Positions 5,285-51,369 of a stretch of DNA of 64,000 nt are shown one piece after another; position 1 is the first letter of the stretch; the number at the start of each line of letters is the position of its first letter. The translations under genes and the position numbers were made by a program. Origin of the DNA: Minisyncoccota bacterium (GTDB lineage Bacteria > Patescibacteriota > Minisyncoccia > Phycocordibacterales > Phycocordibacteraceae); NCBI GenBank assembly GCA_018062765.1, contig JAGORR010000001.1, forward strand, positions 356,930 through 420,929, read 5' to 3'. Below the pieces are notes generated by a model. The model worked only from the letters and a program-made list of their open reading frames with translations, did not search any database and was not told where the DNA came from.

Positions 5285-5935
5285 CTATTTGCTACGGAGC
5301 GCAAGCAAGGAGAGGATGCCGGAGAACGCACCAGCGGACAGTAGTCCGTGCCACAGGAAGTGAGTGCCCATTGTTATGTACTCGCATGCCCACAAATCGA
5401 TAGACCGGAACAGGAGCGCGGATAGGGCGAGCACGAGTGCAAGGATGCCAAGGAGAGCGGCGCGTCCGGATACTCGATAGCTCCTCCACGTGAGTAAAAG
5501 CCCAAGGAGGACAACCGGAATTGCGACGCCTGCGAAAAAAGGTAGTTCAGGGAAGGTGGCATCGACCAGGAGTGCCGAGAGGTATTGGAGCGCGAGAAAT
5601 GCGACAAACATGAGGCCGGCGCCGAGCCATCCGTAGAACGTGCGAGCCCAAAAATATACGAAGAACAGTAGGAATAGAAGTCCTGGTGTCGTGTCGAAGG
5701 CAAGTGCCCACGGGGTGCGCAGTCCGTGCCATAGTAGGCTCCCAACGCCGTTCGTGACTAAGAGAATGCCAAGTACCCAGAGATCGTACGCGCGCGGTGC
5801 GCGGCGGTACACAAGGTAGAGTGCGAGGAGTCCGAACGCGACAATGATGAGGTTGGACCATGTATTCCATGTTTCCGCAGGGAACGCGGTTAACACATCT
5901 GGCGTCTCACAATACTGCGGACCGAAAGGGTACAT
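5285..5935 (-). CDS. polytopic membrane protein (about 7 TM, ceramidase/hemolysin-III-like topology)
   Basis: 216-aa ORF of consecutive hydrophobic helices (WNTWSNLIIVAFGLLALY...HFLWHGL). The family call is tentative. Confidence 0.6.
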   Translation of the reverse strand: MYPFGPQYCETPDVLTAFPAETWNTWSNLIIVAFGLLALYLVYRRAPRAYDLWVLGILLVTNGVGSLLWHGLRTPWALAFDTTPGLLFLLFFVYFWARTFYGWLGAGLMFVAFLALQYLSALLVDATFPELPFFAGVAIPVVLLGLLLTWRSYRVSGRAALLGILALVLALSALLFRSIDLWACEYITMGTHFLWHGLLSAGAFSGILSLLALRSK

Positions 5936-5986
5936 GCGCCTAGTTTAGCAAATCGCTATTCCTCGACCTCCTTGCTCTCTCCTAGT

Positions 5987-6026
5987 TTGCTCCATCTCGG
6001 TGCCTATAGGCACCGAGATGGAGCAA
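5987..6026. repeat. perfect 40-nt palindrome, copy 1 (TTGCTCCATCTCGGTGCCTA|TAGGCACCGAGATGGAGCAA)
   Basis: Read directly. A second copy at 62402-62441 differs only by a compensatory T..A to C..G pair. Confidence 0.9.
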
Positions 6027-6175
6027 AGAAGTTCACGGCATATCACGTTGTTACATGTACTAGCTCGCGTTTGCGCGCAAAAGCTCGCGCGCACCCAATA
6101 GTACTCACATCCTGTTCCTACTCTCCCCAAAAACCGACGACCCAAGGCAGATGCGTGCTATTTTTATACATATAT

Positions 6176-6712
6176 ATGTCATTCGCGGACCCGCGAGAGA
6201 ATGTTCTGCAGATAGGCCTTCATGACGGCATGAAGGTGGGAGACTTGGGCGCTGGATCGGGTCACTACGCGCTTGCTGCAGCTGGCGCCGTCGGAGACAC
6301 CGGTCGCGTGTACGCGATCGATGTCCAGGAGGAAGTCGTCATGCATATAAGGGACGCGGCACATCGCGCAGGGCTCAAGAATGTCGAGACGATATGGGGA
6401 GACTTCGAACGCCCTGGCGGCACCAAGCTTAAGGACGGAGTCCTCGATGCTGCCATACTCTCGAATGTCATGTTCCAGGTGGAGCATCATACGAGCGCGA
6501 TCTCGGAGGTGAAGCGCATCGTGCATCCTGGCGGAAAGGTGCTTGTCATCGACTGGGCGGGTTCCTACGGGCACTTGGGGCCTCATCCGGACCAGGTCGT
6601 TCCTGAGTCAGAAGCAGAGCGATTGTTTATACAGGCAGGATTCCACAAGGCGAAGAGTTTTCGCGCAGGTCCCCATCACTACGGTATCCTGTTTACGACA
6701 CCCGCCTCATGA
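6176..6712 (+). CDS. class I SAM-dependent methyltransferase
   Basis: ORF track 5972..6712 is over-extended, so the start is taken at ATG 6176 (MSFADPRENV). SAM motif I is VGDLGAGSGHYALAAAG. Confidence 0.8.
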   Translation: MSFADPRENVLQIGLHDGMKVGDLGAGSGHYALAAAGAVGDTGRVYAIDVQEEVVMHIRDAAHRAGLKNVETIWGDFERPGGTKLKDGVLDAAILSNVMFQVEHHTSAISEVKRIVHPGGKVLVIDWAGSYGHLGPHPDQVVPESEAERLFIQAGFHKAKSFRAGPHHYGILFTTPAS

Positions 6713-8007
6713 TGCCGAACCTGAACATTCGTCCGTTCCAACTCATCGTGATCTCCGTCTTCGGAGTACTGGCGCTCGTAGGTGTGTTCGTGTTCGCCAC
6801 CTACGAGCGCAACGCAACAGGAAGCACGAGTGCGGGCAAAGTAGTTATCTGGGGCATTATCCCCGAGCGCGAGATGCAGGGGGCGATGGAGGAGCTGACG
6901 CGAAACAGCGACTATCGCAACGTGTCGTATCTGTACGTGCGGCCCGAAGCATTCGCTTCAGAGCTTGCGAACGCGCTTGCTGAGGGTAATGGCCCCGATC
7001 TGGTACTTATCTCCCAAGAGGAGCTCGCAAGCCAAGAGTCGAAGCTCTCGCTCATCTCTTTCAAGTCCGTTCCGGAAAGGACGTATCGTGATATGTACGC
7101 CACCATATTCGAGATATTCCTTACGAATGAGGGCACATACGGATTCCCGCTCGCGCTCGACCCTATGGTCATGTATTACAATCGACAAACGCTCGCGAAC
7201 GCAGGCATCGCGACGCCGCCCACAACCTGGGCCGGGATACGCGGTCTCGTGGACACGCTTACGAGCCGGCAAGGGGATACTGTCGCGAAGTCGGCAATAC
7301 CCTTCGGGAGCTACGGGAACGTGGATAATGCGCGCGGAATTATCTCGACCCTGTTCTTGCAGGCAGGCTCGCGTCTCTCCGAGCGAGGCACGAGCGGCAT
7401 ACGCGCCACATTCACTAGCGACGCGGGTGGAGGAAGCCCGGTCCAATCCGCTCTTCTCTTTTATGCAGAGTTCGCTGACCCGGTGAAGCCGTTTTATACT
7501 TGGAACAGCGCGCGCGAATCGTCCCGACAAGCGTTTCTTTCTGGAACCTTGGCGTTCTACCCGGGCTACGCGTCGGAGGCGCGTTCCCTAGCCGCAGCAA
7601 ACCCTAATCTCGACTTTGATATGGCGCGCATGCCGCAGCCGGAGGCAGGCGGCACTAAGGCGGTGTACGCGAAAGCATACGCGCTCGCGATAACCAAGGT
7701 ATCGCGCAATTACCACGGGGCATTCTCTGCAGCGCTCGGGCTTACGGAGGCCCGCATAATGTCGCTTGCTGCGCAGAGTGCCGGTCTAGCACCTGCCATG
7801 CGCACCCTGATAGCGAAGCCGCCCGCGGACCTCTACTCACCGGTCTTCTATCCGGATGCGCTCATTGCGCGCGGTTGGCTCTCCCCAGCGCCCTCCGTCA
7901 CGGACGGCATCTTCGCTGGTATGATGCAGAACGTGACTTCAGGACGCTTTACTATCGCGCAAGCAATCAAGTATGCGTCAGATTCCATCGACGCGTCGTT
8001 AAGGTAA
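6709..8007 (+). CDS. membrane-anchored extracellular solute-binding protein (ABC-type, sugar-like family)
   Basis: 432 aa. ATGA overlap with the upstream stop. N-terminal TM anchor. Size and pattern fit periplasmic binding protein family 1. No permease or ATPase gene is adjacent. Confidence 0.6.
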   Translation: MMPNLNIRPFQLIVISVFGVLALVGVFVFATYERNATGSTSAGKVVIWGIIPEREMQGAMEELTRNSDYRNVSYLYVRPEAFASELANALAEGNGPDLVLISQEELASQESKLSLISFKSVPERTYRDMYATIFEIFLTNEGTYGFPLALDPMVMYYNRQTLANAGIATPPTTWAGIRGLVDTLTSRQGDTVAKSAIPFGSYGNVDNARGIISTLFLQAGSRLSERGTSGIRATFTSDAGGGSPVQSALLFYAEFADPVKPFYTWNSARESSRQAFLSGTLAFYPGYASEARSLAAANPNLDFDMARMPQPEAGGTKAVYAKAYALAITKVSRNYHGAFSAALGLTEARIMSLAAQSAGLAPAMRTLIAKPPADLYSPVFYPDALIARGWLSPAPSVTDGIFAGMMQNVTSGRFTIAQAIKYASDSIDASLR

Positions 8008-8011
8008 GGCA

Positions 8012-8464
8012 ATGAAACGCACAGCCATCTTCGTTTCTGCACTCTTGCTGACTCTTTCAGCGATGTCCGCCCCAGTGTACGCGCAGGACATGAATCTTGG
8101 GGGTGGAGCGACCGGTAACGCTAGTACCAATCTCGGCGGAGGTCCGTCAGGTAACGGTACCAATCTGGGGGGAGGCTCTCAGGGGTGCGGATTCCTTTTG
8201 AATCCACTCGACAACGAGTGCAATAGCGACATGACGCTCAATGATCTCCTTAGCAAAATATTGAACGTCATCGTCCAGATAGGTGTAGTCGTGCTCACTA
8301 TGATGCTCGTCTACGTTGGTTTTCTCTTTGTCACTGCCCAAGGGAACCCGGAAAATCTTTCCAAGGCCCGGAGCGCACTCATATGGACGATAATCGGCGG
8401 CTTCCTCGTGCTTGGCGCGAGCGTCATTGCAGAGGCGGTTAAGTCGACGGTTGAAGCGCTCTGA
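8012..8464 (+). CDS. VirB2/TrbC-like two-helix pilin paralogue 1 (signal peptide, NLGGG x3 repeats)
   Basis: Signal peptide ...APVYA/QD. C-terminal TM1-loop-TM2 module VVLTMMLVYVGFLFVTAQGNPENLSKARSALIWTIIGGFLVLGASVI. Confidence 0.7.
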   Translation: MKRTAIFVSALLLTLSAMSAPVYAQDMNLGGGATGNASTNLGGGPSGNGTNLGGGSQGCGFLLNPLDNECNSDMTLNDLLSKILNVIVQIGVVVLTMMLVYVGFLFVTAQGNPENLSKARSALIWTIIGGFLVLGASVIAEAVKSTVEAL

Positions 8465-8465
8465 T

Positions 8466-8738
8466 ATGGACGGCGAGGAGGTTATCGTCGTGGGACAGAA
8501 AGGCACCTTCGCCTCGATGGTGTACAAGTTCACCGGCTTCATTGACTCCAGTATTATCCCGTTATTGTTTGCGGCCGCATTCCTCGCGATGCTGGTGGGC
8601 ATATTTCGCTATTTCATGATTCCGGGCGAGGAGAATTTGCAGAAGGGTCGCCAGTTTTTGCTGTGGGGCGGTATCGCTTTTGTGTTCATGTTCCTTATCT
8701 GGGGGCTCGTAAACCTACTCCTCGATTCGGTATTCTAG
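8466..8738 (+). CDS. VirB2/TrbC-like pilin paralogue 2 (no signal peptide)
   Basis: ORF track 8412..8738, with the start at ATG 8466. Module is FLAMLVGIFRYFMIPGEENLQKGRQFLLWGGIAFVFMFLIWGLVNLLL. Confidence 0.65.
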   Translation: MDGEEVIVVGQKGTFASMVYKFTGFIDSSIIPLLFAAAFLAMLVGIFRYFMIPGEENLQKGRQFLLWGGIAFVFMFLIWGLVNLLLDSVF

Positions 8739-8786
8739 CTGTTTATAAGTACACATAGCCTGGCTCAGTACTGATACGCTAAACGT

Positions 8787-9215
8787 ATGAAAAAGACATT
8801 CTCCGCCCTATTGTTTTCACTAGCGCTCATGTTCACACTTACACCGTCCATTGCCTTTGCGCAGGGCCAGCAGCAGCCGCAACCTGATCAGCAGGGCACG
8901 GGTGAGTCACAGCCGAGCGAGCTCGAGCTTCGTATCGGATGGCTTCTCGACTTCGTCGATGGGTACGTCATTCCGCTCATATTCGGACTCGCATTCGTCG
9001 TATTCATCTGGTTCGTGTTCGTGTACTTCATCCTTGGCGGAGCTGAGGAAGAGCAGCGCGCTAAAGGAAAGCAGTTCCTGTTGTGGAGTCTTATTGGGTT
9101 CGTACTCATGCTCTCCTTGTGGGGTATCGTGAACCTGCTTCAGAACACCATAGGATTCGATAATAACTCCAAGCCGTGTCTGCCGGTGTTCGAACAGGAC
9201 AACGAAGACTGCTAA
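8787..9215 (+). CDS. VirB2/TrbC-like pilin paralogue 3
   Basis: Signal peptide ...SIAFA/QG. Module is FVVFIWFVFVYFILGGAEEEQRAKGKQFLLWSLIGFVLMLSLWGIVNLLQ. Confidence 0.7.
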   Translation: MKKTFSALLFSLALMFTLTPSIAFAQGQQQPQPDQQGTGESQPSELELRIGWLLDFVDGYVIPLIFGLAFVVFIWFVFVYFILGGAEEEQRAKGKQFLLWSLIGFVLMLSLWGIVNLLQNTIGFDNNSKPCLPVFEQDNEDC

Positions 9216-9299
9216 TGCGGTTGTCCCCACAGTGCACCCCATACGATTGACTTCGCGCCAAAGCCGCTTACCCTTAGTACATATCCGCTTACCACTGCT

Positions 9300-9689
9300 A
9301 TGAAGAAAATTCTCTTGCTCGTCGCTCTGTTCACCATCCCGGCCATTGCGTTCGCGCAGTTTGGCGAAGGCGGTAATAATCAGGACCTTGGCGATCTCGG
9401 TCAGGAGTTCACTGACATCATCAATAACATCGCGGTTCCGCTTATCTTCGCGCTCGCGTTCGTCATCTTTATTTGGGGAGTATTCAAGTACTTCATTCTT
9501 GGTGGCGGAGACGAGGAGGCTCGCGAGAAAGGTCGCGACCTCATGATTTGGGGACTTCTGGGATTCTTCTTCATGATTTCAGTCTGGGGACTCGTGAATC
9601 TCGTCGTGAACACCATCGACCTGGAGCAAAGCGGAGCACCGGACGAAAATGACTTGCCGGACGCTCCGGGAGTCAGGGACTCGAACTAA
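9300..9689 (+). CDS. VirB2/TrbC-like pilin paralogue 4
   Basis: Signal peptide ...AIAFA/QF. Module is FVIFIWGVFKYFILGGGDEEAREKGRDLMIWGLLGFFFMISVWGLVNLVV. Confidence 0.7.
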   Translation: MKKILLLVALFTIPAIAFAQFGEGGNNQDLGDLGQEFTDIINNIAVPLIFALAFVIFIWGVFKYFILGGGDEEAREKGRDLMIWGLLGFFFMISVWGLVNLVVNTIDLEQSGAPDENDLPDAPGVRDSN

Positions 9690-9704
9690 CTCATAGTGTA
9701 GGCG

Positions 9705-9729
9705 AAAAGACCCGCTCGGCGGGTCTTTT
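9705..9729 (+). terminator. intrinsic terminator
   Basis: aaaaGACCCGC-tcg-GCGGGTC-TTTT. Confidence 0.7.
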
Positions 9730-9783
9730 GCTATCCCCGATTAGTACGTGCCATAGATGAGTGCGGATATATACTGAACAGTA

Positions 9784-10053
9784 ATGAACGAAAGAGTAGA
9801 GATACCGCTTCTTGAGGGCATCAAAACGCAGATAGTGAATCCCATCATCACGCTTCTAGCGCTTGGAGCATTTGTAATGTTTCTTTGGGGTCTCGTCGTA
9901 TTCATATGGAATGCCGGGGATGCGGAGGCGCAGTCGACGGGGAAGCGCGTCATGCTGTGGGGTGTCATTGGGCTTGTTGTCATATTCGGTGCGTGGAGCA
10001 TTGTGGAGCTTATCGGAAGCACGATAGGGGTAGACCCAAATCAGTACCGGTAA
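9784..10053 (+). CDS. VirB2/TrbC-like pilin paralogue 5
   Basis: 89 aa. Module is GAFVMFLWGLVVFIWNAGDAEAQSTGKRVMLWGVIGLVVIFGAWSIVELIG. Confidence 0.65.
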   Translation: MNERVEIPLLEGIKTQIVNPIITLLALGAFVMFLWGLVVFIWNAGDAEAQSTGKRVMLWGVIGLVVIFGAWSIVELIGSTIGVDPNQYR

Positions 10054-10060
10054 AGAAGAA

Positions 10061-10090
10061 GGCCGCCGTCACCATCAGGTGCGGCGGCCT
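10061..10090. terminator. hairpin between convergent genes
   Basis: GGCCGCCG-tcaccatcaggtg-CGGCGGCC. Confidence 0.5.
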
Positions 10091-10103
10091 CAAGAGGAAA
10101 GAA

Positions 10104-10610
10104 CTAGTTCGGACCTTCTATCCAGTAATGGAAGACGAAGGGTTCTGCTGTAGAGCTTCGGATGCGAAATCCATCAGCAAACTCGCAGCCTTCTGCTGTC
10201 CAGTTGATCCAGGCTTCATGCACGTAGCACTGGGCCTCGTAGCCGCTCGTCTCTAGCACGTGAAGATCAGCGGCAGGGCAGTTTCTCGGCATCCAAAGCT
10301 CGGGAGCATGCGACCAGTCGTCTGGGGACGACTTGGCCGGAGCTATTCGCGCCTGGGGTCTCGTCTCGCCACTTGGCTTGCCGCAGATTGTTGGCACGTT
10401 TAAGCGCTCATCTTGAGACGAACTTCTGTAGCCACGCTCATTTGTAGCCTGCGTCGGATTCGATTCACCCCAAAACTGGAAGTGGTAGCCTAAGAATCCG
10501 AGCACGCTCAGAGCGATCGTAACCCAAAGCGCAATGTCCCACATGAAGGAATTGCCGCTCTTCTTCGCCTCACCAGGCGAGCCTGCTGAGGGTGTAGCGT
10601 GAGATGCCAC
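10104..10610 (-). CDS. hypothetical membrane-anchored protein, second gene of the SPFH operon
   Basis: 168 aa. One TM helix (IALWVTIALSVLGFLGYHF). Cys/Trp-containing C-terminal domain. Starts 12 nt after the upstream gene's stop. No family recognised. Confidence 0.55.
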   Translation of the reverse strand: MASHATPSAGSPGEAKKSGNSFMWDIALWVTIALSVLGFLGYHFQFWGESNPTQATNERGYRSSSQDERLNVPTICGKPSGETRPQARIAPAKSSPDDWSHAPELWMPRNCPAADLHVLETSGYEAQCYVHEAWINWTAEGCEFADGFRIRSSTAEPFVFHYWIEGPN

Positions 10611-10621
10611 AAGTTACTCCT

Positions 10622-11860
10622 TCAGATGTTCTTGGTTGCATTATGGCCGACAGCGGCGTCGAGAAGGCTGTTGCCGCTCGACTGCACGATGACCTTTTTT
10701 GCAGTCCCGCGCCGGGCTTGTACCCGGTCGAGAGCCTCGGTCAAGGTCATGATAGACTCCTTTGTTTTTTCAGAAGACTTTTCGGACGCCGCGACGAGCT
10801 TGAGCGCTTGCTCGAGTTCGGCATCGCTGTCCTTATCCTCGGCACGCTTCTCTGCGTCTTCCGCTGCGGCCTTGTTCTGTGCCAGTAGCATCACAGCATC
10901 TGGAGTGAGACGCGCGACGTTGAATCGCGTGATCTTAACACCAAGCTGCCGTACGTCACCGACACCGTTCGCAACCGCAGTGTTGAGGAAGAACTCAATC
11001 TCCTTCTCAACCTCGCGTTGCGCGGCGCGCTGCTCCTTCGCTTCGAGGCCCGCGCCTGCCTCAAGGAAGTAGGCTACGGGGTCGTCGATCGCTTTAAGCG
11101 TTCCGTCCTGAGTCTTCGCCTCGTAGTTCGTGGCAGTGATACCGAGACGTTTGATCTGCGCTTCGTCGACTTTCCCGCTTGCGTCGCGAGGAAGCTCAGC
11201 CATCTTGGTGTTCGCGATCATCGTGATGAGCTGAACGGATAGTGGAAGCTTGAGGAACAGGAACTGCTCCCAGGTATGGAAGAGTGCTGCACCACGCATG
11301 GCCTCCTTCGTCATGCCTTCAACGATGCTTCGGACGCCGTTCATGAGGCCGCTCTTGATCAACTCCTTCATGCGCTGAGGCCCGATCGGTCTTCCGCTGT
11401 CGTCCTTGGCTTCATGGTCTGGCTCGATCGTAAGATCGACCTTCACATCCACGGAACCGCCCGCGGTCTGTTTGCCCTCCTTGTCGGTCGCCTTGCAGGT
11501 GACCGAGAATGGGGCAAATTCGACATCGAGACGGGTTACGTCAATTGGTATCAGGCCGATTTCAAACGGCAGGTAGTCTGCCGTCATGTAGTCGCCTGGT
11601 CCGACGAGGATGTCCTGCGGTTCGCCATAGCAAGTCACCAAGGCGACATGCTGCGGCTTGGCAGAGACGTTCGTTTTCCAGCCCATCTTCACCATGAGGA
11701 TTCCGAGAGTGGCAAAGCTGACACCCATGAGGTAGTTCCCGTCGACTCGGTAGGCGAGAAACGCACAGAGCGCGCCGACCGCCATAAGTATGACGGCGAT
11801 GCGCCACAACTTCGAACTGAAGTCAGGACCGACTATGTATTGGCTTACAAGGTTCTTCAT
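10622..11860 (-). CDS. SPFH/band-7 (flotillin/prohibitin-like) membrane protein with coiled-coil tail
   Basis: 412 aa. Two N-terminal TM helices. SPFH-like core (HVALVTCYGEPQDILVGPGDYM..LPFEIGLIPIDVTRLDVEF). Ala/Glu/Lys-rich C-terminal coiled coil. Confidence 0.7.
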   Translation of the reverse strand: MKNLVSQYIVGPDFSSKLWRIAVILMAVGALCAFLAYRVDGNYLMGVSFATLGILMVKMGWKTNVSAKPQHVALVTCYGEPQDILVGPGDYMTADYLPFEIGLIPIDVTRLDVEFAPFSVTCKATDKEGKQTAGGSVDVKVDLTIEPDHEAKDDSGRPIGPQRMKELIKSGLMNGVRSIVEGMTKEAMRGAALFHTWEQFLFLKLPLSVQLITMIANTKMAELPRDASGKVDEAQIKRLGITATNYEAKTQDGTLKAIDDPVAYFLEAGAGLEAKEQRAAQREVEKEIEFFLNTAVANGVGDVRQLGVKITRFNVARLTPDAVMLLAQNKAAAEDAEKRAEDKDSDAELEQALKLVAASEKSSEKTKESIMTLTEALDRVQARRGTAKKVIVQSSGNSLLDAAVGHNATKNI

Positions 11861-20734: not shown

Positions 20735-20756
20735 AACCGCCCGAAAGGGCGGTTTT
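20735..20756 (+). terminator. intrinsic terminator after rpmG
   Basis: AACCGCCC-gaaa-GGGCGGTT-TT. Confidence 0.7.
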
Positions 20757-20859
20757 GCATTACTCAGGCCAGCTTGACGAGGGGTCTTTCATGCAGCAGA
20801 GTGCGCACGGACCAGATACCGGATTCCCCGGTCACATCATCTGGCAGAGAGAGGTTCGA

Positions 20860-21342
20860 ATGAATTTCTGGCAAAAGCTTGGGATCGCGGTCGGTGCGCT
20901 TCTCGTCCTCACGATGCTCGGCTACGGCTTCTTCCGCGCCGGTTTCGTCGGCAAGGTCGAGAACTACGAGATCGGTTACGTCTTCCATCCGCTCTCAGGT
21001 GAAATCGAACGGCTCGATCGGCCCGGCTACCATCTGATGCTGCCGTGGGATAACCTCGGCGTCATCGACAAGCGCCCGATGCAGGTTTGCATCGCCGCGA
21101 ACAAACGCGTCCTCAACTGCAAGTTAGTGCAGTTCAACCCGAGCGAGGAGGGACTCAAGACGTTCCTCAGCTGGCACGGCGTCGACTACGCGAGCGGGAC
21201 AGTCGCCTCGGCCGGCTCGGGATCCCCTCTCGCGGAGATCCTGATGAGCTATGCATACGACGGGTCGGGGAAGACCTATCCCTTCCTCACGGTCATCCGC
21301 GAGATGAAGGGGATAGATGCTGACGCGGCATCCGTGCAATGA
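20860..21342 (+). CDS. hypothetical membrane protein, paralogue A (SPFH-N-terminal-like motif)
   Basis: ORF track 20755..21342. Start at ATG 20860 after AGAGAGAGG. One TM helix, then YEIGYVFHPLSGEIERLDRPGYHLMLPW..NCKLVQFNPSEE. Confidence 0.6.
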   Translation: MNFWQKLGIAVGALLVLTMLGYGFFRAGFVGKVENYEIGYVFHPLSGEIERLDRPGYHLMLPWDNLGVIDKRPMQVCIAANKRVLNCKLVQFNPSEEGLKTFLSWHGVDYASGTVASAGSGSPLAEILMSYAYDGSGKTYPFLTVIREMKGIDADAASVQ

Positions 21343-21791
21343 GGACCGTCGCGTACGCAACCCTCATGGGCCTCGCGATTGCGCTCGCTTCGTTCTATCT
21401 GCTCTGCGTGAACTATCTGGGTGCGAACGAGCGCGGACTTGCCTACGACGTGTTCTCGGGCGAGCTCTTCTTGCAGGAGCAGCCGGGCATCCAAGTGACC
21501 CCGCCGTGGATCTTCACGACGAGAATCGACCTGGAGCCGAATAAGGTGTGCGTCACTTCGACGGCGCATGCCCGGTTCAACTGCAGGCTTGTCCAGTTCA
21601 TACCGGAGGAATACCGTGCGTTCCTCGAGGTCGAAGGGTGGCGCTGGTATTGGTGGAGCAATCGCATCTCCTTCAACTGGGGGTACGACGACGAGTACCG
21701 AGGGTTCCGCGACGTGCTGCGCGGCTATGCACTCTCCGGCCAGGACTACCCGTTCATCCGCGTTCTCGAGGAGTTCGAAGAAGGAGCCTGA
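21339..21791 (+). CDS. hypothetical membrane protein, paralogue B
   Basis: ATGA overlap with paralogue A. Shares the TM helix plus ..SGELFLQEQPGIQVTPPW..NCRLVQFIPEE..YPFIRVLEE. Confidence 0.6.
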   Translation: MRTVAYATLMGLAIALASFYLLCVNYLGANERGLAYDVFSGELFLQEQPGIQVTPPWIFTTRIDLEPNKVCVTSTAHARFNCRLVQFIPEEYRAFLEVEGWRWYWWSNRISFNWGYDDEYRGFRDVLRGYALSGQDYPFIRVLEEFEEGA

Positions 21792-22411: not shown

Positions 22412-23368
22412 ATGCGCCGCTTGGCACTTTACCTCCTCGCAGCTTCTCTCATACCGCTTGCCGCGGCGGCACAAGGGCTTCCGTCAGGCTCAATCATCCC
22501 GGACCTCGATGAGGGAGATCAGAACCTGCGCACGTGCGCTGCAGGTTGGAAGGCGGTTCTCATAATATCGGGAGGGTTCCTAGAGCTCGCAATTTACATC
22601 GCGATGCTTATCGCCGTTCTCGTTATCGTCTATGCAGGGATTATATTCCTGTTTAATGCGACAAACCCCGAGAACCTGTCGAAAGGGAAAAAGATTCTTG
22701 GAAACGCGGCGATTGGTCTTCTTATTACGCTTTGCGCATGGCTACTTGTGAATACGGTGCTCACAAGCCTGGGCGCAGGAGACATCGCAAGCCGCACAAG
22801 CGTCATAGGTTCAGGCGGCTCGCTCTGTATCACGATACAACCTCCGCAATCTCAAATACCAACCAGTCAGGAAGTAGCTGCCGGTTTGCCACTGGCACCA
22901 CCTCCTCGAGGTACCGGCTCGTGTGACCCGATTGCTGTGCGCGCAGCCGCAGCGGCCGGTGGGTACCAAATCTCGGAGCGAGAGGCGAACACATTTGCCT
23001 GCCTTGCAGGTCCCGAGAGCTCGTGCGGCGCAAATGTCGATGGTGCGACGACGCCTTCTGGGCAGCGTACGAGTGCAGCGGGTCCGTGGCAGAACATTCT
23101 TGGTTTTAAGGATAAGTGCCACTCACTCAACATCCCCGCCTGTGGCAACTTGCAGTGTCACCAGGCATTTTCAGGCGGAGTGGAGAAGTCTGATCCGGCC
23201 TCGAGAGCTCTCGCTGCCAAGTGTCGTCAGGCACTTGCAAACCTTACGTGCGCTGCCGCCGCAGCCGTGTGTCTTAATAACGCGAGCGGAAACGACTTCA
23301 GCGACTGGACTGCGGATTCGCGCAGCTCGAAACAGAAGAAGTGTATTCGCGACCATGCGGGGCTCTAG
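22412..23368 (+). CDS. pilin-like N-domain fused to a Cys-rich lytic-transglycosylase-like (SLT-like) domain
   Basis: 318 aa. Signal peptide. N-module is IAVLVIVYAGIIFLFNATNPENLSKGKKILGNAAIGLLITLCAWLLVNTVL. The C-domain has SLT-like motif order: PESS, GPWQNIL, LNNASGNDFSDW. Confidence 0.6.
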   Translation: MRRLALYLLAASLIPLAAAAQGLPSGSIIPDLDEGDQNLRTCAAGWKAVLIISGGFLELAIYIAMLIAVLVIVYAGIIFLFNATNPENLSKGKKILGNAAIGLLITLCAWLLVNTVLTSLGAGDIASRTSVIGSGGSLCITIQPPQSQIPTSQEVAAGLPLAPPPRGTGSCDPIAVRAAAAAGGYQISEREANTFACLAGPESSCGANVDGATTPSGQRTSAAGPWQNILGFKDKCHSLNIPACGNLQCHQAFSGGVEKSDPASRALAAKCRQALANLTCAAAAAVCLNNASGNDFSDWTADSRSSKQKKCIRDHAGL

Positions 23369-23383
23369 CGCTATACTTTACCT

Positions 23384-23926
23384 ATGAGCCGAACAGCCTT
23401 TTGGATACTCGCACTCGCATCGGTTGGGCTTTTGGCTGCTGGCACACTTTTCTATCTCAATTTGAATCCTGAGCCGGAAGCTCCTCCCATGGTAACTCCT
23501 GACCCATTTGGGAGTACTAACGATGGCGTAATTATTACGGCCGTGGGCGGGGAGGACATACGCGCTCGTGACTTCGTTAACGATGGCGAGACTGAACCTG
23601 ATCCCGGTAATCCCGGAACGTACTTCCTTGCCGGTTATTTCGGCTACTGCGACGGGGACGAGGAGTGTGAACCTATTGCAACAAGCGACTTCAACATTAA
23701 GTACGATAGCAAGATTGATGCCTTCACGATCGGTCTTGCCACCGAGCCGATAGGTGAAGTTAGGAAGCGTGCAGAAGCATTTCTAATGAAGAAGCTCGGG
23801 ATTGGGGAAAATGATATGTGTGCACTCAATTACTATGTCGGCACTTCGTATTGGGTAAATGAAACTTACTCGGGAGGTAATCTTGGGTGGAGTTTCTGTC
23901 CCGGCTCCATAGCACTTCCTGACTAG
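23384..23926 (+). CDS. hypothetical membrane-anchored secreted protein
   Basis: 180 aa. N-terminal TM helix. Acidic, Cys-containing ectodomain. Sits between the two pilin-hydrolase fusion genes. Confidence 0.55.
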   Translation: MSRTAFWILALASVGLLAAGTLFYLNLNPEPEAPPMVTPDPFGSTNDGVIITAVGGEDIRARDFVNDGETEPDPGNPGTYFLAGYFGYCDGDEECEPIATSDFNIKYDSKIDAFTIGLATEPIGEVRKRAEAFLMKKLGIGENDMCALNYYVGTSYWVNETYSGGNLGWSFCPGSIALPD

Positions 23927-23927
23927 T

Positions 23928-24839
23928 ATGCGACGTACTACGACATTGCTCCTGCTTCTCCCGTTGCTACTTACAGCTATGCCCGCGCATGCGCAGTTCA
24001 CCGAGGGCTGGACCATCGTCCCGGCAGCGTGCCATTCGTGCCCTGCGGCTTGGGTTTGCGTACTTGAGATGCTCAACAATCTGGTGACGCTCATCATGAC
24101 CATCGCGGTCTTAATCGTCGTACTCGTCATCACCTACGCCGGCATCCTGCTTGTGTTTACTGCGACGAACCCCGAGAACAAGAGCAAAGCAAAAAGCATG
24201 CTTATTAATGCTGCGGTAGGTCTCGTCATCGCTCTTGGCGCGTGGCTCATCATCGATAAGGTCCTCGAGTCTTTGGGTGCGGGCGGTATAGACGAGACAA
24301 CGCGCGTTATTGGTACCGGTGGCAGCGCATGTGTTGTTGCTCAGGATCCGATCACTGAGCCGCCTGAGGGAACGGATCCATCGCCTATTACTCCCGGTCC
24401 TGGCGGTGGAGGCAGCGGCGCTAATTGCCCGGTCCCGGCGGCGTCCGGGATGGTGGCATTCCCTGCGGAGGCTACAAGCGGTGAAACTGAATACGCAACA
24501 CCGAGTACGGTCGAGAACTTCCTTGCGATGCGCGCCGCAGCGCTTGCCGATGGAATTGACATTAAGGTGACTGACGGATATCGGTCCGAAGCCGAACAGG
24601 TTCAGTTATGGTATCGCTACAATCAGGACACGAGCCAAGTCGCAAGGCCGTGTACGCTAGGTGGCAGCGGTTCAAACCACAACTCAGGTGTCGCTCTGGA
24701 CCTCACCGTCGGCTGTAGAAAGACAGATAGTTCCTGTGATAGCGCCCAATACCGATGGCTTAAAGCAAATGGTTCTCAGTGGGGCTTCAACAACAATTTG
24801 CCTACCGATACGGTGCACTGGTCACCATCGGGTCGCTAG
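23928..24839 (+). CDS. pilin-like N-domain fused to a peptidase M15 (VanY-type D,D-carboxypeptidase) domain
   Basis: 303 aa. Signal peptide. N-module is IAVLIVVLVITYAGILLVFTATNPENKSKAKSMLINAAVGLVIALGAWLIIDKVL. M15 motifs are VTDGYRSEAEQ, SNHNSGVALDL (SxHxxGxAxD) and DTVHW. Confidence 0.75.
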   Translation: MRRTTTLLLLLPLLLTAMPAHAQFTEGWTIVPAACHSCPAAWVCVLEMLNNLVTLIMTIAVLIVVLVITYAGILLVFTATNPENKSKAKSMLINAAVGLVIALGAWLIIDKVLESLGAGGIDETTRVIGTGGSACVVAQDPITEPPEGTDPSPITPGPGGGGSGANCPVPAASGMVAFPAEATSGETEYATPSTVENFLAMRAAALADGIDIKVTDGYRSEAEQVQLWYRYNQDTSQVARPCTLGGSGSNHNSGVALDLTVGCRKTDSSCDSAQYRWLKANGSQWGFNNNLPTDTVHWSPSGR

Positions 24840-42989: not shown

Positions 42990-45731
42990 ATGGAGGGAAC
43001 ACGGCAGCTTACGACTCCCGAGGAGGAGCTTGCCTACTTGCGTGCGCAAGTAGAGGAGAAAGAACGCGAGCTCGCGGGGCGCGCGCAGGAAGCACCGCGC
43101 AACACTCTCGTGCACGAGCGTATCCTTCATCACCGGCGCGAGATGCCAGAGACGGTGCTCGCTCCGTCCTACAAGCTACCTGAAGCTGAAGTGGAAGGCA
43201 TCGCGCTGGATCTCGATCCGGATGATAACGACGCAACGATGGCGGAACTTCAGGGAATCATGGAGGAGAAGGGTATCAAGAATGCGCTCTCGGTCCTTGA
43301 AAAGCTCCGGAATCCGCATCTCGATGACGACTTCCATCGATTCCTGGTGCAGTACGTCGTCGCTGGAATGCAGGTGAAGGGGCTCGGGGAACGGGAACCA
43401 GCATGGAAGGCGCTCCACATGACTCTCTACGAGGTCATCCTTCCGGAGCCCGGCAAGGACTCGGACGCGCGAGAGAAGACCTTGAAGGAACTCATCTCCT
43501 CGATGGAGCAGTTCTATGCAGGCATGCTCTCGGTGGGGGATGCGAGCGCGAGCGAGCCGGGCTATTTCTCGATGGAGCTCGCTGTTCCCGCTAATCGTCC
43601 GGAGCTCCTTTTCTATGTCGCTGTGCCTAACGGCAAGCGCGCGCTCTTTGAGCAGCAGCTCTTGGCAACCTTTCCGAACGCGAACATTCGTCCGCAGCCG
43701 AACGATTACAACATATTCAGCGAGGATGGCGTTGCCGTAGGCGCCTCTGCGACGCTAGCTGACAAAGGCGTGCTTCCTCTCAAGGATTATGCTGATTTCG
43801 ACTACGACCCGTTGAATACGGTTCTGGGTGCCTTCGCGAAGATCGAGAAGGCGAGCGAGGGAGCGGCGCTCCAAGTCATCATCGAGCGCGATACGCACCA
43901 CCTGGAACATTACCGCCGGATACTCGGAGCGCTCCGTCGCGGCGAATCGAAGGATCGTGCGCTCTCGATGCCGGAGACATTCGTGGGCGAGGCCGCGCGC
44001 GAGATCGGGTCAGCGCTCTTCCCGGGCTCACGCAAATGGGAGAACGAAGTTGAGAAGAGAGCCGAAAGGAAAGATGGGAACCAGGCTTTGATTGAGCAGA
44101 TAGAGAAGAAGATCGCAGCTCCCATCGTAAAGACGACGCTCCGTCTCATGGTGTCCTCGCCGACCCACACCCGCGCGGAGTCAGGGCTCGCGGACCTTGA
44201 GGCGGCATTCAATCAGTTCACCAACACCGTAGGCAACAAAATCAACTGGAATCGGTTCTCAGGCACCAAGGTACAGAGCCTTTTCCATGCATTCTCTTAC
44301 CGTTTGCCGGCGAAGGACGCGATACCGCTTTCTCTTCGAGAGGTCACGAGCCTCTACCACTTCCCGCCCGAGGGCATCAGCTCTACGCCGCAACTCCGGC
44401 AGTCGCGCTTCACTGCGGCCGCTGCGCCCTTGGATCTCCCTGACTCGGGGACGTATCTCGGGGATAACGAGTTCCGCGGACGGAAGACTGCGGCATTCCT
44501 GTCGCCGGAGGACCGCATGCGGCACCTCTATGTCGTCGGACAGACGGGAACCGGTAAGTCGGTATTCATGAGGAATCTCGCCATACAGGACATCAAGGCA
44601 GGGAACGGCGTCTGCTTCATCGACCCCCACGGGAACGACATCCTCGATATCCTCGCGGCTGTACCTCCCGAGAGATACGAGGATGTCATCTATTTCGATC
44701 CGGCGAACCTGGCGCGTCCGTTCGGCCTCAACTTGCTTGAATACGATGCGAGCCGCCCAGAGCAGAAAACCTTCATCGTTAATGAGATCCTCGCGATATT
44801 CCGCCGCCTCTACGGGGACGTGCCGGAGTCGATGGGTCCTGCGTTCGAGCAGTACTTCCGCAACTCAACCCTCCTGGTGATGGAGGACCCGGCATCGGGC
44901 TCGACCTTACTCGATATCGCGCGAGTCCTTTCGAACAAGGAGTTCCGCGACCTGAAACTCTCGCGAAGTAATAATCCGGTCATAAACCAGTTCTGGAACG
45001 AGATAGCGACGAAGGCTGAAGGAGAGGCATCGCTTCAAAACATCGTTCCGTACATCACTAACAAGTTCGATGACTTCACCGCGAACGACTTCATGCGGCC
45101 AATCGTCGGGCAGCAGGAATCCTCGTTCAAATTCCGTGAGGTGATGGACAACAAGAAGATACTCCTTGTGAACCTCTCTAAAGGAAGGCTCGGGGAACGA
45201 AACGCCAACCTCCTGGGCCTCATCCTCGTCGGGAAGATATTCATGGCTGCGCTCTCTCGTGCAGATAACCCGAGGGCAGACTACGCGCCGTTCTACCTCT
45301 ATATCGACGAATTCCAGAACATAACTACGGACTCCATACCGGGAATCCTCTCCGAGGCTCGCAAATACCGGCTTTCGCTTACCATGGCGCACCAGTTTCT
45401 GGCGCAGGTGGATGAGAAGGTGCGGGATGCCGTGTTCGGGAACGTCGGCTCCATGGCCGTGTTCCGCGTCGGCGAGGAAGATGGCGAGTACTTCGAGAAG
45501 CAGTTCGCGCCGGTGTTCTCCGCGCTCGATTTCGTGAACATAGAGAATTACAACGCGTACGTCAGACTCCTTGCGCGCGGCGTGCCGCAGAAGCCATTCA
45601 ATATAAAGACGCCGCCACCGGCCGCCACGAACCCTGCGCAGGTGGACGACCTCAGAGAGCTCTCAGCACTCGTCTACGGCCGCGACCGTACACAGGTGGA
45701 AAACCTTATCAGAAGCAGGTACATGTCATAA
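42990..45731 (+). CDS. TraD/VirD4-like FtsK-HerA-superfamily ATPase (type IV coupling-protein-like) with a large soluble N-terminal domain
   Basis: 913 aa. Walker A VVGQTGTGKS. Walker B FYLYIDEFQN. SEARKYRLSLTMAHQFLAQ is typical of the TraD/TraG C-terminal region. I found no N-terminal TM helix. Confidence 0.7.
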   Translation: MEGTRQLTTPEEELAYLRAQVEEKERELAGRAQEAPRNTLVHERILHHRREMPETVLAPSYKLPEAEVEGIALDLDPDDNDATMAELQGIMEEKGIKNALSVLEKLRNPHLDDDFHRFLVQYVVAGMQVKGLGEREPAWKALHMTLYEVILPEPGKDSDAREKTLKELISSMEQFYAGMLSVGDASASEPGYFSMELAVPANRPELLFYVAVPNGKRALFEQQLLATFPNANIRPQPNDYNIFSEDGVAVGASATLADKGVLPLKDYADFDYDPLNTVLGAFAKIEKASEGAALQVIIERDTHHLEHYRRILGALRRGESKDRALSMPETFVGEAAREIGSALFPGSRKWENEVEKRAERKDGNQALIEQIEKKIAAPIVKTTLRLMVSSPTHTRAESGLADLEAAFNQFTNTVGNKINWNRFSGTKVQSLFHAFSYRLPAKDAIPLSLREVTSLYHFPPEGISSTPQLRQSRFTAAAAPLDLPDSGTYLGDNEFRGRKTAAFLSPEDRMRHLYVVGQTGTGKSVFMRNLAIQDIKAGNGVCFIDPHGNDILDILAAVPPERYEDVIYFDPANLARPFGLNLLEYDASRPEQKTFIVNEILAIFRRLYGDVPESMGPAFEQYFRNSTLLVMEDPASGSTLLDIARVLSNKEFRDLKLSRSNNPVINQFWNEIATKAEGEASLQNIVPYITNKFDDFTANDFMRPIVGQQESSFKFREVMDNKKILLVNLSKGRLGERNANLLGLILVGKIFMAALSRADNPRADYAPFYLYIDEFQNITTDSIPGILSEARKYRLSLTMAHQFLAQVDEKVRDAVFGNVGSMAVFRVGEEDGEYFEKQFAPVFSALDFVNIENYNAYVRLLARGVPQKPFNIKTPPPAATNPAQVDDLRELSALVYGRDRTQVENLIRSRYMS

Positions 45732-45743
45732 TCACAGCTATAT

Positions 45744-48700
45744 ATGGCAGGCGAGGGTCCAGGAAACGGTAATGGCAGCAAGCTCGCGGAGCAGCTTGCG
45801 AAACTCGTCGAGCAGAAAGGCCTTCAAGGGATGGCAGTCGCTGATGCTGGTGAGGAACAGGTGCCTGCTCAAGTTGCCACCCCCGCTGTTGTTGAACAGC
45901 ATGAAGTGCCCGTTTCCAGCTACGATGAGGCAGCGGTCTCGAAAGCGCACAAGCGATTCACCGCGCTCATAAGGGGGCTTGAGAAACACCCCGAGATACA
46001 GGTACGTCCTGATGCGCTTGCGAGCCTGAAGACGGCATTCGATGCTATGGGTAAGGCAAAAGGCAGGCTGAAGGCTATGGATGACGCGAATGAAGTGAAT
46101 CACGAACGCCGTAAGAAACAGTTGGATATCATCCAGGCATCGTTTTCCGTGATATTCGGAGAAATCGGAAACGAAGTATCCGAAGGGCTGCGCCCGGTCG
46201 ATGGGACTGCGACAGGAAGGAACGAGGCCACTTCGCGCGACGAAGTGGATACGCGCTACTATCCGCTCGCAGATGAGATTTTCGCAAAGGGGTATAACCC
46301 GAATGAGCTCGAATCGTGGCGAAACATCGCTAAGCGAGTCAAAAGGCCGATTCCAGGAAAGCCTTACAACCCGGGGATATCGCTTACTGATCGCGAGATA
46401 CGCGCGGTTCGCGCCGAACTTGCCAAACTCGAGCAGAAGGACCCGATAGTGCTTCCGACTAAAGCTGCGTCAGAACCAGCACCGCAAGTGCCGCGCGAGC
46501 GGGCACGAAAGCCAAAGCGATCGGAAAAGGATCGCGAGTCACGCGCGATTCGCGATGAACCAAGCATATACGACTCACCTGGCCCGATGCGCCGTACCGA
46601 CATGGACCGCATTGATCCTGCGGTCGTATCAGGGGTAGTTGGAACGTTTGACACGAATGCTCCTGATACGGTTACGGAGCCTTCTGGAGCGGATGCCGCC
46701 TCTGAACTCGACGTCGAGCCTGCTATTCACGACAGCACGCCGAGGCTCCCTGCGGATAAGTTCAAGGATGCGACCCCGAAGAGCGTACGCGAGAGTCTGC
46801 GCCGTTCGATACTGAGTATCAAAGAGCTGCCGCCTACGGAAATGCCAGCCGGGGCTATCGATACCTTGCCGCCTGACCTCGGGTTGAGAACCACTACTCC
46901 CGCAAGAGCGGAAGCGCTGAGGTCCGTAGTCACCCCGCCCGGATCGATAGACACGCTTCCTCCGGTCATCGATACTGCGCCGCAAGCATCTGCAGCCCCA
47001 GAGCCTGTGCTGGTTGCGGAGGTAGATCCGGACGCCGCTGATGCGGCACTTGCGCACGCCGTGTTCCCGAGTGCGTCAACGGAAGGTGTAGCAAATCTTC
47101 CCGCAGTGGTGAATTCGGAAGCTACGCCTACATGGCAGCCGCTCTCGGAGCAAGGTCTCACGCAAGAAGAACTTGTGCATCGGCGTGCTGAGCGCCGTGT
47201 GCAGATTGGCGTCGAGGCTGGCCTTACACAGGAGCTTGGCGACATGTACAACGCACGCGAAGCGTACCTCACTGCGTACCGGGCATTTTATGCGAATAAC
47301 AACCTGGCTGCGCGCGCTGCAGTACAGGCAACGAATTCCACCGAGTGGCAGAACTTGAAGCGACTTGAGGCTGCCTCGGCGACAGCAAGCCTTGCATACC
47401 AGCAAGCACTCGAGCGTTCCGCGACGGAACGGCTAACGGCTAACGCGCCTGAGCGCGAGGCGCTGCTACGTGCAAAGGGAGAGGCCAGGTACCTACTTCT
47501 TGTCGGCGTCGGCTGGAATGCGCCGCGGTACGAAGACGGCCGGCTGATGTCTAAAGAGGACTACGTGAACCAGTACATGACGCAGTACCAGGGCCGCGTA
47601 CTCGATCGCTACATGTCTACTATTGCGTGGCGCGAAGTCACAGCCGGGAACGAGAACGCACGCATCGAGACTCGTGCGGAGGCGCTAGGAGCAAAACAAC
47701 GCAACGTCTTCGATAGGATGCGCTCGTTGGTCCAGGCAACGAACCAGGGACTCGAACGGACGCTTACTCCGACGGGCGCTCGCGCATTCCGTATCGTCGC
47801 AGCTGCGGGCGTCGGTACCGTGCTTGGCGGGTGGGCAGCAGGTGCGATGCGTGGTGCCTCGGTTATCGCAGGTATGCTCACTGGCTCCACCGCGGGTGCG
47901 GCAGCAGGCTCCTTGTTCCAGCGTCTCGTGGGTGCGCGCCGGGCAGCTGCCGTTGATACTGTGCGACACTCGCGTATCACAAGTGCCGCAGACTTAACAG
48001 CGGCAGCTGCTGCGTTCCGCAAGGGTGACGCTGCGCAAATAGCAGCTACGCGAAGGCGTTGGGAGATGGGCGTCGCGCTCGGCGTCGCCTTCCTTACGGC
48101 ACGTTCTATGCCGGGACTAGAGCCCGTCGTTACTAGCTCCCTTAGCGATTTGAGGCGCATCGGCGGAGAGATTATGGGAACAGGCGAGAGCGCCGGCGCG
48201 ACAGCGGCCGTACCCACTGGTGGCGAGTCAGCGTCGCCTTCGTCAGCGGTCACGGGAGGCGCTGGCGGCAGTGAAGGCCAGTCTGCGCCTGTCGCCGGGG
48301 GTGAGAGCGGTACGGGAAGCGGAGCACCAAGAGCAGGCGGTGAAGGCTCCGGGGGCGCAGCTCCGCTCGACTCATCCGTGCCGCCACCTGCGAACAATCC
48401 AGGCCCTGCGGGGAGTCCCTTCGGACGCATTCCGGTACCGACGGATTCCGTTCCGCAGGCGGACGCTATCGGGGGATTCGCTCGTGAGTCGGCGATAATC
48501 TCGGGCGGTAACGGAGGTGACGCCGTGTCGAGTGAAGGACTCGACGATATGCGCGCAGTTGCGGCCGAAGTGCGCGGCACCTCGACAGAATACGTGGCAC
48601 GTTCAGGTGACGGCGGCATTAAGCTCGTCGAAGGTCTCCAGCAGCAGCTTGCGCGCGAGGGCATCACTGAGACGACACCAGGCATTTCAGCTATGACGCG

Positions 48701-50446: not shown

Positions 50447-51175
50447 TCAGTCCCGGATGGGATCCTGATACCGCTGTTCGACCTGGACTAGGCGGCCGTT
50501 CGCTTCGACGTAGCCGACGAAGGACGGGCACCATTCTCCCATCGCGTCGAGCCAGATGTCGTTCTGGGCGAACCAGAACCGCGACATGGCGAGCCACATG
50601 CTGTTCTGCATGTCGTACCCATCCAACATCGTGTTGTACATCATCTGGTTGGAGAGCGACGGAATCACACTGCCCAAGAGGTAGGTGGCGCCATAGTCGG
50701 CACCAAACGCACTCCAGGCCTGGATTCCGCCGGCAACCACCGAGCCGATGGTCACGATGTTGCTCGTGTCGCGCTGGGACTTGGCCTTCAGCTGGAAGGC
50801 CTCGATGTGATCCGCCTGACGGCGGAGCTCAGCGAGCCACAGGCGCTGCAACTCGATGCGGCCACAGGCGCGCACCACCTGCGGGATGTGATACCGCAGG
50901 TCGCGTTCGCCGAACTGTTCTATCGCGTAGCGGGTCGACAGGAAGGTCTGACGACCCAAGTCGTCAGTCTTTTCGGTCAGAGGCGCGATGTTCGGGGGCA
51001 GATTGCCCTCGTAGTACATGCCACGACCATCGAGGTTCGCATGGATCGACGCGTTCTGGACGCGCGCTTCGAAGTCAGCCGTCCGTTCCAGTGGTGCGAT
51101 TCCCTGACGGGAAGCGCATGCGCTGAGCGGAACGACGATCGCCATGGCGAGTGCCACGGCACGGAAGATACGCAT
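50447..51175 (-). CDS. hypothetical lipoprotein (long paralogue)
   Basis: 242 aa. Lipobox VVPLSAC. Shares N- and C-terminal blocks with the 51370..51729 gene. Confidence 0.65.
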   Translation of the reverse strand: MRIFRAVALAMAIVVPLSACASRQGIAPLERTADFEARVQNASIHANLDGRGMYYEGNLPPNIAPLTEKTDDLGRQTFLSTRYAIEQFGERDLRYHIPQVVRACGRIELQRLWLAELRRQADHIEAFQLKAKSQRDTSNIVTIGSVVAGGIQAWSAFGADYGATYLLGSVIPSLSNQMMYNTMLDGYDMQNSMWLAMSRFWFAQNDIWLDAMGEWCPSFVGYVEANGRLVQVEQRYQDPIRD

Positions 51176-51266
51176 GTCAGTGCCCTCCTCGGGCGTTTCA
51201 GTTGATTGGTTTCAGTTTCGGAAGGGAATTGGCTCAGATGAGCCTCCTCCGGCACTCCTGCAGTCA

Positions 51267-51294
51267 AATATACATGATTATAGTAGCTTGTCAA
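51267..51294 (-). promoter_or_regulatory. sigma70-like promoter (TTGACA-16 nt-TATATT)
   Basis: Minus strand reads cTTGACAagctactataatcatgTATATTtg, upstream of the lipoprotein gene. Confidence 0.5.
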
Positions 51295-51320
51295 GCTCAT
51301 GATCGTCGCTGGAAAAGTAA

Positions 51321-51349
51321 AAGGCGCCGAGGGGTTTCCTCGGCGCCTT
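51321..51349 (-). terminator. intrinsic terminator after the short lipoprotein paralogue
   Basis: Minus strand reads AAGGCGCCGAGG-aaacc-CCTCGGCGCCTT-TTacTTTT. Confidence 0.65.
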
Positions 51350-51369
51350 GTTTGCGCGGCTGTCGTCGC

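Follow-up and report, generated by a model that had tools for sequence, protein, structure and literature searches.

Five tandem genes for small two-helix proteins

The DNA analysed here is a stretch of 64 kb (the window) from contig JAGORR010000001.1 of a Minisyncoccota bacterium, and its subject is an array of five small genes at positions 8012–10053. The five open reading frames (ORFs) lie back to back, all on the + strand, and are called p1 to p5 in 5′ to 3′ order. A first-pass annotation, made from the letters of the sequence, had placed five tandem ORFs here and taken their products for VirB2/TrbC-like pilins; all five are present, as follows:

p1, 8012–8464, + strand: 150 amino acids (aa), predicted signal peptide ..VYA/QD, head of NLGGG repeats, TrbC-like hairpin with a AQGNPENLSKAR loop
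p2, 8466–8738, + strand: 90 aa from the ATG at 8466, without a signal peptide, beginning 1 nt past the p1 stop
p3, 8787–9215, + strand: 142 aa, predicted signal peptide ..AFA/QG, Gln/Pro-rich head, C-terminal tail with Cys
p4, 9300–9689, + strand: 129 aa, predicted signal peptide ..AFA/QF, acidic head
p5, 9784–10053, + strand: 89 aa, without a signal peptide

The longest ORF for p2 begins with a TTG at 8412 and encodes 108 aa; the ATG at 8466 is the start used in the gene calls of three independent metagenome contigs. Alignment with MAFFT and hydropathy give p1–p5 a common plan, as the first-pass annotation had described: a first transmembrane (TM) helix, TM1, is followed by a short acidic/basic loop, an invariant tryptophan and a second helix, TM2, with two strong hydrophobic segments in every one of the five. 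The three proteins that had been credited with signal peptides, p1, p3 and p4, do show predicted cleavage motifs of the AxA type, though the site in p1 is VYA/Q and not the AYA/Q originally read. Likewise the WG(I/L)VN motif, proposed as the common end of TM2, is exact in p2–p4 but loose in p5 (WSIVE) and absent from p1, while the three kinds of head segment listed above are as first described.

To place the proteins in a family we used the gathering scores of two Pfam models, PF18895 (T4SS_pilin, 26.6 bits) and PF04956 (TrbC/VirB2, 27.9 bits). All five are over the PF18895 threshold, with 47.9, 26.9, 37.6, 43.2 and 39.7 bits for p1 to p5 (E 5e-6 to 1e-12). With PF04956, p1 passes at 32.8 bits, p5 reaches 12.3 bits and p2–p4 give no match. 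A custom pilin hidden Markov model (HMM) matched 7 of the 792 window ORFs at E <1e-8. The similarity among p1–p5 is not due to chance, given the PF18895 scores, the specificity of the custom HMM and the synteny in dozens of genomes described below. The best NCBIfam match for each of the five is NF045849, a pilin-like family of Mycoplasma integrative and conjugative elements (ICEs), at 23.6–31.6 bits (E 1e-7 to 3e-5); its 80-residue model is covered nearly in full by p1, p2, p4 and p5 and over about two thirds by p3, but its cut-off of 40 bits is reached by none, so they are not members of that family.

An AlphaFold2 model of p4, built with 89 homologues, has a signal helix at residues 3–19 and a hairpin at 30–67/72–105, with a mean predicted local distance difference test (pLDDT) of 78.7. 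Taken with the hydropathy and the alignment, it gives p1–p5 the size, the two helices and the charged loop of VirB2-type proteins, and some p4 homologues carry the NCBI name ‘pilin’. The HMM search that the first-pass annotation had proposed as a check on its pilin assignment thus bears it out, and supports p1–p5 as putative divergent VirB2/TrbC-like two-helix pilin paralogues. Within the set p1 is a divergent subtype, with an identity of 24–33% to p2–p5.

A conserved gene block with a solute-binding protein

The array does not stand by itself. Two genes directly upstream belong to the same block, and two hairpins lie within and behind the array:

Methyltransferase, 6176–6712, + strand: class I S-adenosylmethionine methyltransferase of 178 aa, with NCBIfam and Pfam methyltransferase matches
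Solute-binding protein (SBP), 6709–8007, + strand: MalE-like solute-binding-fold protein of 432 aa, SBP_bac_8 58.9 bits, SBP_bac_1 54.6 bits
Terminator-like hairpin, 9701–9732, + strand: between p4 and p5, GACCCGC...GCGGGUC followed by UUUUG, folding energy (dG) −20.7 kcal/mol, z −2.9
GC-rich hairpin, 10060–10091, no strand assigned: between p5 and the convergent gene at 10104–10610, dG −26.9 (+) and −28.6 (−), z about −6 to −7

The methyltransferase is the head gene and runs into the SBP gene with a 4-nt overlap of stop and start (ATGA, 6709–6712). The SBP and p1 are separated by 4 nt and p1 and p2 by 1 nt, and the three remaining gaps, p2–p3, p3–p4 and p4–p5, measure 48, 84 and 94 nt. The spacing across the block is operon-like. 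With the hairpin at 9701–9732 in the last of these gaps, p5 may be transcribed separately from p1–p4, and the hairpin at 10060–10091 is likely a bidirectional terminator. A scan for consensus promoters and terminators gave matches that were not above shuffled expectation, and the hairpins rest on RNA folding instead.

Two features flank the block. A perfect 42-nt palindrome (window 5986–6027; arms of 21 nt without a spacer) lies between the divergent genes for a ceramidase-like protein (5285–5935, −) and the methyltransferase, and may act as an operator or form a hairpin. On the far side of the array a convergent pair of genes (window 10104–11860, −) encodes a 168-aa protein and a 412-aa TM-anchored protein, the latter with weak similarity to SPFH/Band_7 (2.4e-9 in the homologue from one relative); a gene in this position recurs 3′ of the array in many, though not all, relatives.

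The closest relatives of the SBP in the PDB are MalE-type sugar-binding proteins (E=4e-6). Its N-terminus is a conserved TM helix with neither a lipobox Cys nor a prepilin motif, and the helix (window 6709–6810) carries a motif, (K/R)PFQ(I/V)I..(A/V)(F/V)(G/A)..A..G(L/V)..FA, that is strongly conserved across ~70 species. A mere signal anchor would not normally be so well conserved, which hints at a partner within the membrane. The first-pass annotation had described an SBP without a transporter partner upstream of the array, and this is what we find: no ATP-binding cassette (ABC) permease or ATPase to serve it is present among the annotated window genes.

To see how widely this arrangement is kept, we scanned the GTDB species representatives with a profile of p4, the best-conserved member of the array (97 homologue clusters). 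The scan gave at least 585 relatives, and the best 80 loci were analysed with custom HMMs. A block of methyltransferase, SBP and five pilins is found in five related loci and on one JGI contig; together with the upstream gyrA it is kept where the identity of the SBP is only 47–49%, and also in more distant relatives. The linkage to the SBP is strict: it lies directly 5′ of the array in 62 of the 65 loci with enough upstream DNA (the remaining three also show an SBP match), and the gene 3′ of the SBP is a pilin in all relatives examined. A methyltransferase lies 5′ of the SBP in every relative for which a gene table was returned. Among the best 80, 57 loci are complete, and these hold five pilin domains in 35 cases, six in 18, four in three and seven in one. 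At least 57 species-level genomes have the cassette of methyltransferase, SBP and four to seven pilins, usually five.

The individual pilins can be followed between genomes by their position. For p1, p4 and p5 the orthologue in the same position is the best match and outscores the best paralogue within the genome in every comparison, and with p2 and p3 it does so in most; identities are 24–49% between paralogues and 43–69% between orthologues. Because the orthology is position-specific, the five are ancient, individually maintained and non-redundant. Variation within one position is confined largely to the parts outside the membrane helices, the column entropy of 89 p4 homologues being 1.2–1.5 bits in the TM helices and 2.6–2.8 bits in the mature N-terminus and the C-terminal tail. 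Copy number and head variability among relatives were the comparison that the first-pass annotation had recommended, and the outcome is a number that is mostly five and exposed ends that do vary.

Over a shorter range the array is unchanged, three contigs of different sample origin matching the window across it at 100% identity. On one contig (ERZ27275549) this identity takes in the five pilins and also the 412-aa gene behind them, and every one of the 191 nt differences falls within the SBP gene (positions 26–1324 of that contig; 191 of 1299 nt and 28 aa, mostly synonymous), which reflects either recombination of the SBP allele or a chimera at the end of the contig. Long DNA repeats, gene-conversion tracts and invertible elements were sought and none was found, which argues against switching. 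The array is best described as an old, non-redundant set, and a recent or switching antigenic cassette is disfavoured.

Other pilin-domain and secretion-type genes

The source is an ultra-small bacterium of the CPR, a Patescibacterium of the class Paceibacteria (Parcubacteria/Kaiserbacteria-like), and the p4 homologues come from metagenome-assembled genomes named ‘Candidatus Paceibacterota’ and ‘Minisyncoccia’. The window is ordinary chromosome, with gyrA, clpB, relA/spoT, topA, uvrABC, IF-2, serS, dprA, ddl and eight tRNAs. Elsewhere in it we found the following genes that may bear on the array:

22412–23368, + strand: pilin hairpin with a Cys-rich, putatively lysozyme-like (VirB1-like) C-terminal domain, 318 aa, PF18895 36.8 bits
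23384–23926, + strand: exported/anchored protein, 180 aa, conserved between the two fusion genes, no Pfam match
23928–24839, + strand: pilin hairpin with a VanY/M15 D,D-peptidase, 303 aa, PF18895 43.8 bits, PF02557 VanY 50.9 bits
42990–45731, + strand: soluble TrwB/VirD4-like P-loop ATPase of the type IV coupling protein (T4CP) type, 913 aa, DUF87 and TraG-D_C

The two fusion genes were turned up by the custom pilin HMM on the window ORFs. Their hairpins are 50% identical to each other; that of the VanY fusion is clearly closest to p1, and that of the other scores about equally against p1, p2 and p5. The Cys-rich domain has invariant E-S..G and G..Q motifs, aligns with C-type lysozyme at E=0.005 and is modelled with a pLDDT of 85–94, which together make a lysozyme-like fold a moderately confident assignment. 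The combination of pilin hairpin and VanY is common to ~70 homologue clusters, and the three-gene cluster at 22412–24839 is syntenic in distant Paceibacteria relatives, two of which have a gene of the same size in the position of the 180-aa protein.

For the 913-aa ATPase the sole meaningful relative in the PDB is TrwB (E=2.5e-4). We considered it as the missing VirB4 and rejected it, since matches to TraD/VirD4/TrwB beat those to VirB4 and TraG-D_C is present. Large unmatched ORFs near the arrays of relatives were also considered as VirB4 and rejected, as they match Schlafen/AlbA_2, DUF2339 or Band_7 or give no match. Directly 3′ of the ATPase gene (window 42990–49547, +) is a gene for a 1267-aa low-complexity protein rich in Ala, Pro and Glu, which has a hydrophobic, Gly/Ala-rich stretch in its centre and matches no family. 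The statement in the first-pass annotation that no secretion gene is nearby therefore holds within ~10 kb of the array but not for the window, which has pilin-domain genes at 22.4–24.8 kb and the T4CP-like ATPase at 43–45.7 kb. Similarity to a pilin family is significant, and genes of type IV secretion system (T4SS) type do occur in the window, though VirB4 is not found in the 64 kb.

Two further pairs of genes in the window resemble each other. Adjacent TM-anchored ORFs of 195 and 150 aa (20755–21791, +) are apparently paralogous, with a common C..(R/K)..NC(K/R)LVQF.PEE motif and no Pfam match. Neighbouring ORFs of 242 and 113 aa (50447–51825, −) probably encode a pair of paralogues that are exported; both have signal- or lipoprotein-like N-termini and a common ‘LPPNI.P.T..TDDLGR’ segment, and neither matches a family.

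Interpretation and comparison with known systems

Patescibacteria, which live attached to other microbial cells, make up a large part of the diversity of bacteria, and both the T4SS and the pilin array that goes with it are essential in the one species of theirs that is genetically tractable. In Southlakia epibionticum ML1 the T4SS cluster includes six PF18895 pilins, SEML1_0014–0019, found essential by transposon sequencing (Tn-seq) (PMC10633639, Wang et al. 2023), and lysozyme-like and DD-peptidase-fold proteins lie beside VirB4 and the six pilins (PMC10633639). Quinonero-Coronel et al. (2025; PMC12102498) ran PF04956 and PF18895 against 3,035 genomes of Patescibacteria. They found VirB4 in 2,417 of the 3,035 assemblies (~80%) and VirB2-like pilins in 1,948 of the assemblies containing VirB4, near virB4 in 1,135 and away from it in ~40%. 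The same study describes 441 VirB2 arrays of 2–11 genes, with a within-array identity of 25% on average and 54% at most, that are most abundant in Microgenomatia and Saccharimonadia, and proposes adaptation to different host strains as their role (PMC12102498). A 2025 review repeats these findings and speculates on a pilus for exchange or uptake (PMC12857230).

An array in the published sense has at least two PF18895/PF04956 genes, in tandem or one gene apart, of low identity and in Patescibacteria; here there are five in tandem at 24–49%. As such arrays were already described in 2023–2025, the locus is a well-supported further example and not a discovery. What it adds, namely the strict link to the SBP, the position-specific orthology and the fusions of pilin and hydrolase, are modest increments; neither the SBP partner nor the fusions are mentioned in the literature found on these arrays. 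The published picture is unchanged, but the constraints should be useful for work on the interface between epibiont and host.

We give a probability of roughly 0.6 to the reading in which p1–p5 are VirB2-family subunits, hairpins with both termini outside, that jointly build a heteromeric T4SS pilus or stalk for contact with the host. The pilins would enter the cytoplasmic membrane as helical hairpins with both ends outward and the short charged loop in the cytoplasm, as sequence signals and the AlphaFold model suggest, three of them (p1, p3 and p4) with the help of a cleavable Sec signal peptide. A monoderm-type (MPF-FATA-related) T4SS encoded elsewhere in the genome would then extract the pool of five subunits and assemble it into a heteromeric pilus or stalk. 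The variable segments at the N- and C-termini of the subunits would be exposed on its surface and touch the host cell. Related hairpins may bring the lysozyme-like and VanY peptidase domains to the cell surface; such a pair of enzymes is T4SS-associated in ML1, because proteins of these two kinds adjoin VirB4 there. We infer assembly, dependence on VirB4 and host contact from the family and from the genetics of ML1, and any role of the SBP or the methyltransferase would be of the same standing. That the paralogues are ancient and non-redundant favours a heteromeric structure over antigenic switching. The heteropolymeric fibre that the first-pass annotation had offered as one possibility accordingly fares well in part: a set with a division of labour fits better than switching does, though the polymer itself is something we infer.

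Several points weigh against this reading. VirB4, VirB6, PrgI/VirB3 and TrsD are absent from the annotated ORFs of the window, and no T4SS core gene is found among the large ORFs up to 10 kb from the array in the 80 related loci; the link to a T4SS therefore comes down to family membership and prevalence in the literature. The sole T4SS-type ATPase in the window is T4CP-like, and this class is abundant in the phylum, is mostly encoded at a distance from virB4 and can be lost by ML1 without being missed (PMC12102498); it may have been put to another use. The score of p2 clears the PF18895 cut-off by just 0.3 bits and is borderline. Searching PDB sequences with the profile of p4 homologues returned no pilin but only a spurious match to the TM segment of FliL (E=0.0015), and a Foldseek search of the p4 model against the PDB also gave no pilin, with a best E of 1.5. 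A bare helical hairpin is a low-information fold, too simple to discriminate, so the structure searches are uninformative and pilin membership therefore rests on HMM scores and not on structure. Nor has a pilus built of such proteins been reported in the literature for any Patescibacterium.

Another reading takes the PF18895 hairpin for a membrane module, an anchor or oligomerisation unit with both termini outside, and has the five proteins stay in the membrane without forming a fibre; in a variant they would be parts of a T4SS channel or of the base of a stalk, as in the ICEs of wall-less Mycoplasma. The same hairpin does bear the VanY and lysozyme-like domains in the window, the former in ~70 clusters. 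The best NCBIfam matches, to Mycoplasma ICE pilin-like and pLS20 transmembrane conjugation proteins, are monoderm families not known for pili, and pili are generally absent from the T4SSs of Gram-positive bacteria (PMC12102498, PMC10633639). However, p1 passes the canonical TrbC/VirB2 threshold, and anchors without cargo would hardly account for a fixed set of five to six small members whose ectodomains are tiny, so we hold this reading to be unlikely. Alternatively the five could be interchangeable major pilins, one or another of which is used for evasion or for matching host strains. This is the hypothesis given in the literature for these arrays, as for the VirB2 paralogues of Bartonella and Anaplasma (PMC12102498), and the first-pass annotation had likewise suggested antigenic or host-range variation. 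The N-terminal heads and C-terminal tails are indeed the most variable parts and are wholly different between paralogues. But orthology that is specific to position across deeply diverged genomes, a near-fixed copy number (five pilins in 35 of 57 loci), arrays that are identical in other samples even where the adjacent SBP differs at 191 nt, and the lack of long repeats, conversion tracts or invertible elements all speak against it, and the genes are packed tightly, as for co-expression; we regard such variation as rather improbable.

The constant presence of the SBP allows a further explanation, in which the SBP and the five hairpin proteins would belong to one surface or membrane complex that takes in host sugars or glycans, either independently of a T4SS or loosely coupled to one. 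It would account for an SBP encoded directly 5′ of the array in essentially all loci examined, its stop only 4 nt from the start of p1, with no permease or ATPase in the window to partner it and with an unusually conserved TM helix and (K/R)PFQII motif, and for the absence of VirB4 near the cassette in 80 species; reviews also speculate on a role of the Patescibacterial T4SS in uptake. On the other hand, Saccharibacteria have the same pilin family within an essential T4SS cluster that lacks an SBP, no transporter subunits are known that take the form of two-TM hairpins with a signal peptide and a variable ectodomain, and adjacency of genes, the only evidence, does not by itself show a complex. 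Quite improbable as it therefore seems to us, the idea can be put as one heteromeric, bindosome-like machine of Paceibacteria, equally improbable as a whole, in which a TM-anchored SBP and five to six hairpin proteins would capture host glycans or nutrients. Such a machine may be built or fed by a T4SS, with the pilin-fused lysozyme-like and VanY enzymes perhaps opening the wall of the host or the cell's own. If true, it would supply a concrete and testable component for the role in uptake that has long been sought for the essential T4SS pilins of Patescibacteria.

The namesake of this last idea is the Bas bindosome of Sulfolobus, in which sugar-binding proteins are encoded or assembled with several small pilin-like membrane proteins. 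These are of the type IV pilin type, with class III signal peptides and assembly by a type IV pilus-like ATPase, whereas the small proteins here are of the T4SS VirB2 type and the SBP has no prepilin motif. The Mycoplasma ICE family Mbov_0395 (NF045849) is the top NCBIfam match and comes from a monoderm envelope, as p1–p5 do, but the scores are under the cut-off and the context is not that of an ICE. With the VirB2 expansions of Bartonella and Anaplasma (cited in PMC12102498) the array has in common tandem divergent copies and variable exposed parts; there, however, the copies belong to a VirB operon and are interpreted as variants for antigenicity or host range, and here they are position-conserved orthologues, invariant between the sampled strains.

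Like VirB2, TrbC and TraA of diderm T4SSs, p1–p5 are small, with a signal peptide on the precursors of p1, p3 and p4, and have the two hydrophobic helices and the short charged loop, and p1 passes PF04956. They differ in that the host is monoderm, p2–p5 match PF18895 only, VirB3–B11 are not adjacent and the sequence and Foldseek searches detect no similarity to solved pilins. The closest systems are the published Patescibacterial arrays, which share PF18895, the phylum, small tandem genes of low identity (24–49% here), a chromosomal location and the absence of a relaxase. In ML1 the pilins lie inside a VirB4/VirB6/PrgI cluster by dnaA, while the array described here has no T4SS core gene within 10 kb, in the window as in the 80 relatives, and unlike ML1 and the published arrays it always follows a methyltransferase and a solute-binding-fold protein. 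It also comes from a Paceibacteria lineage and not from Microgenomatia or Saccharimonadia, where the published arrays peak, and so adds a Paceibacteria case of a pilin array detached from the T4SS core.

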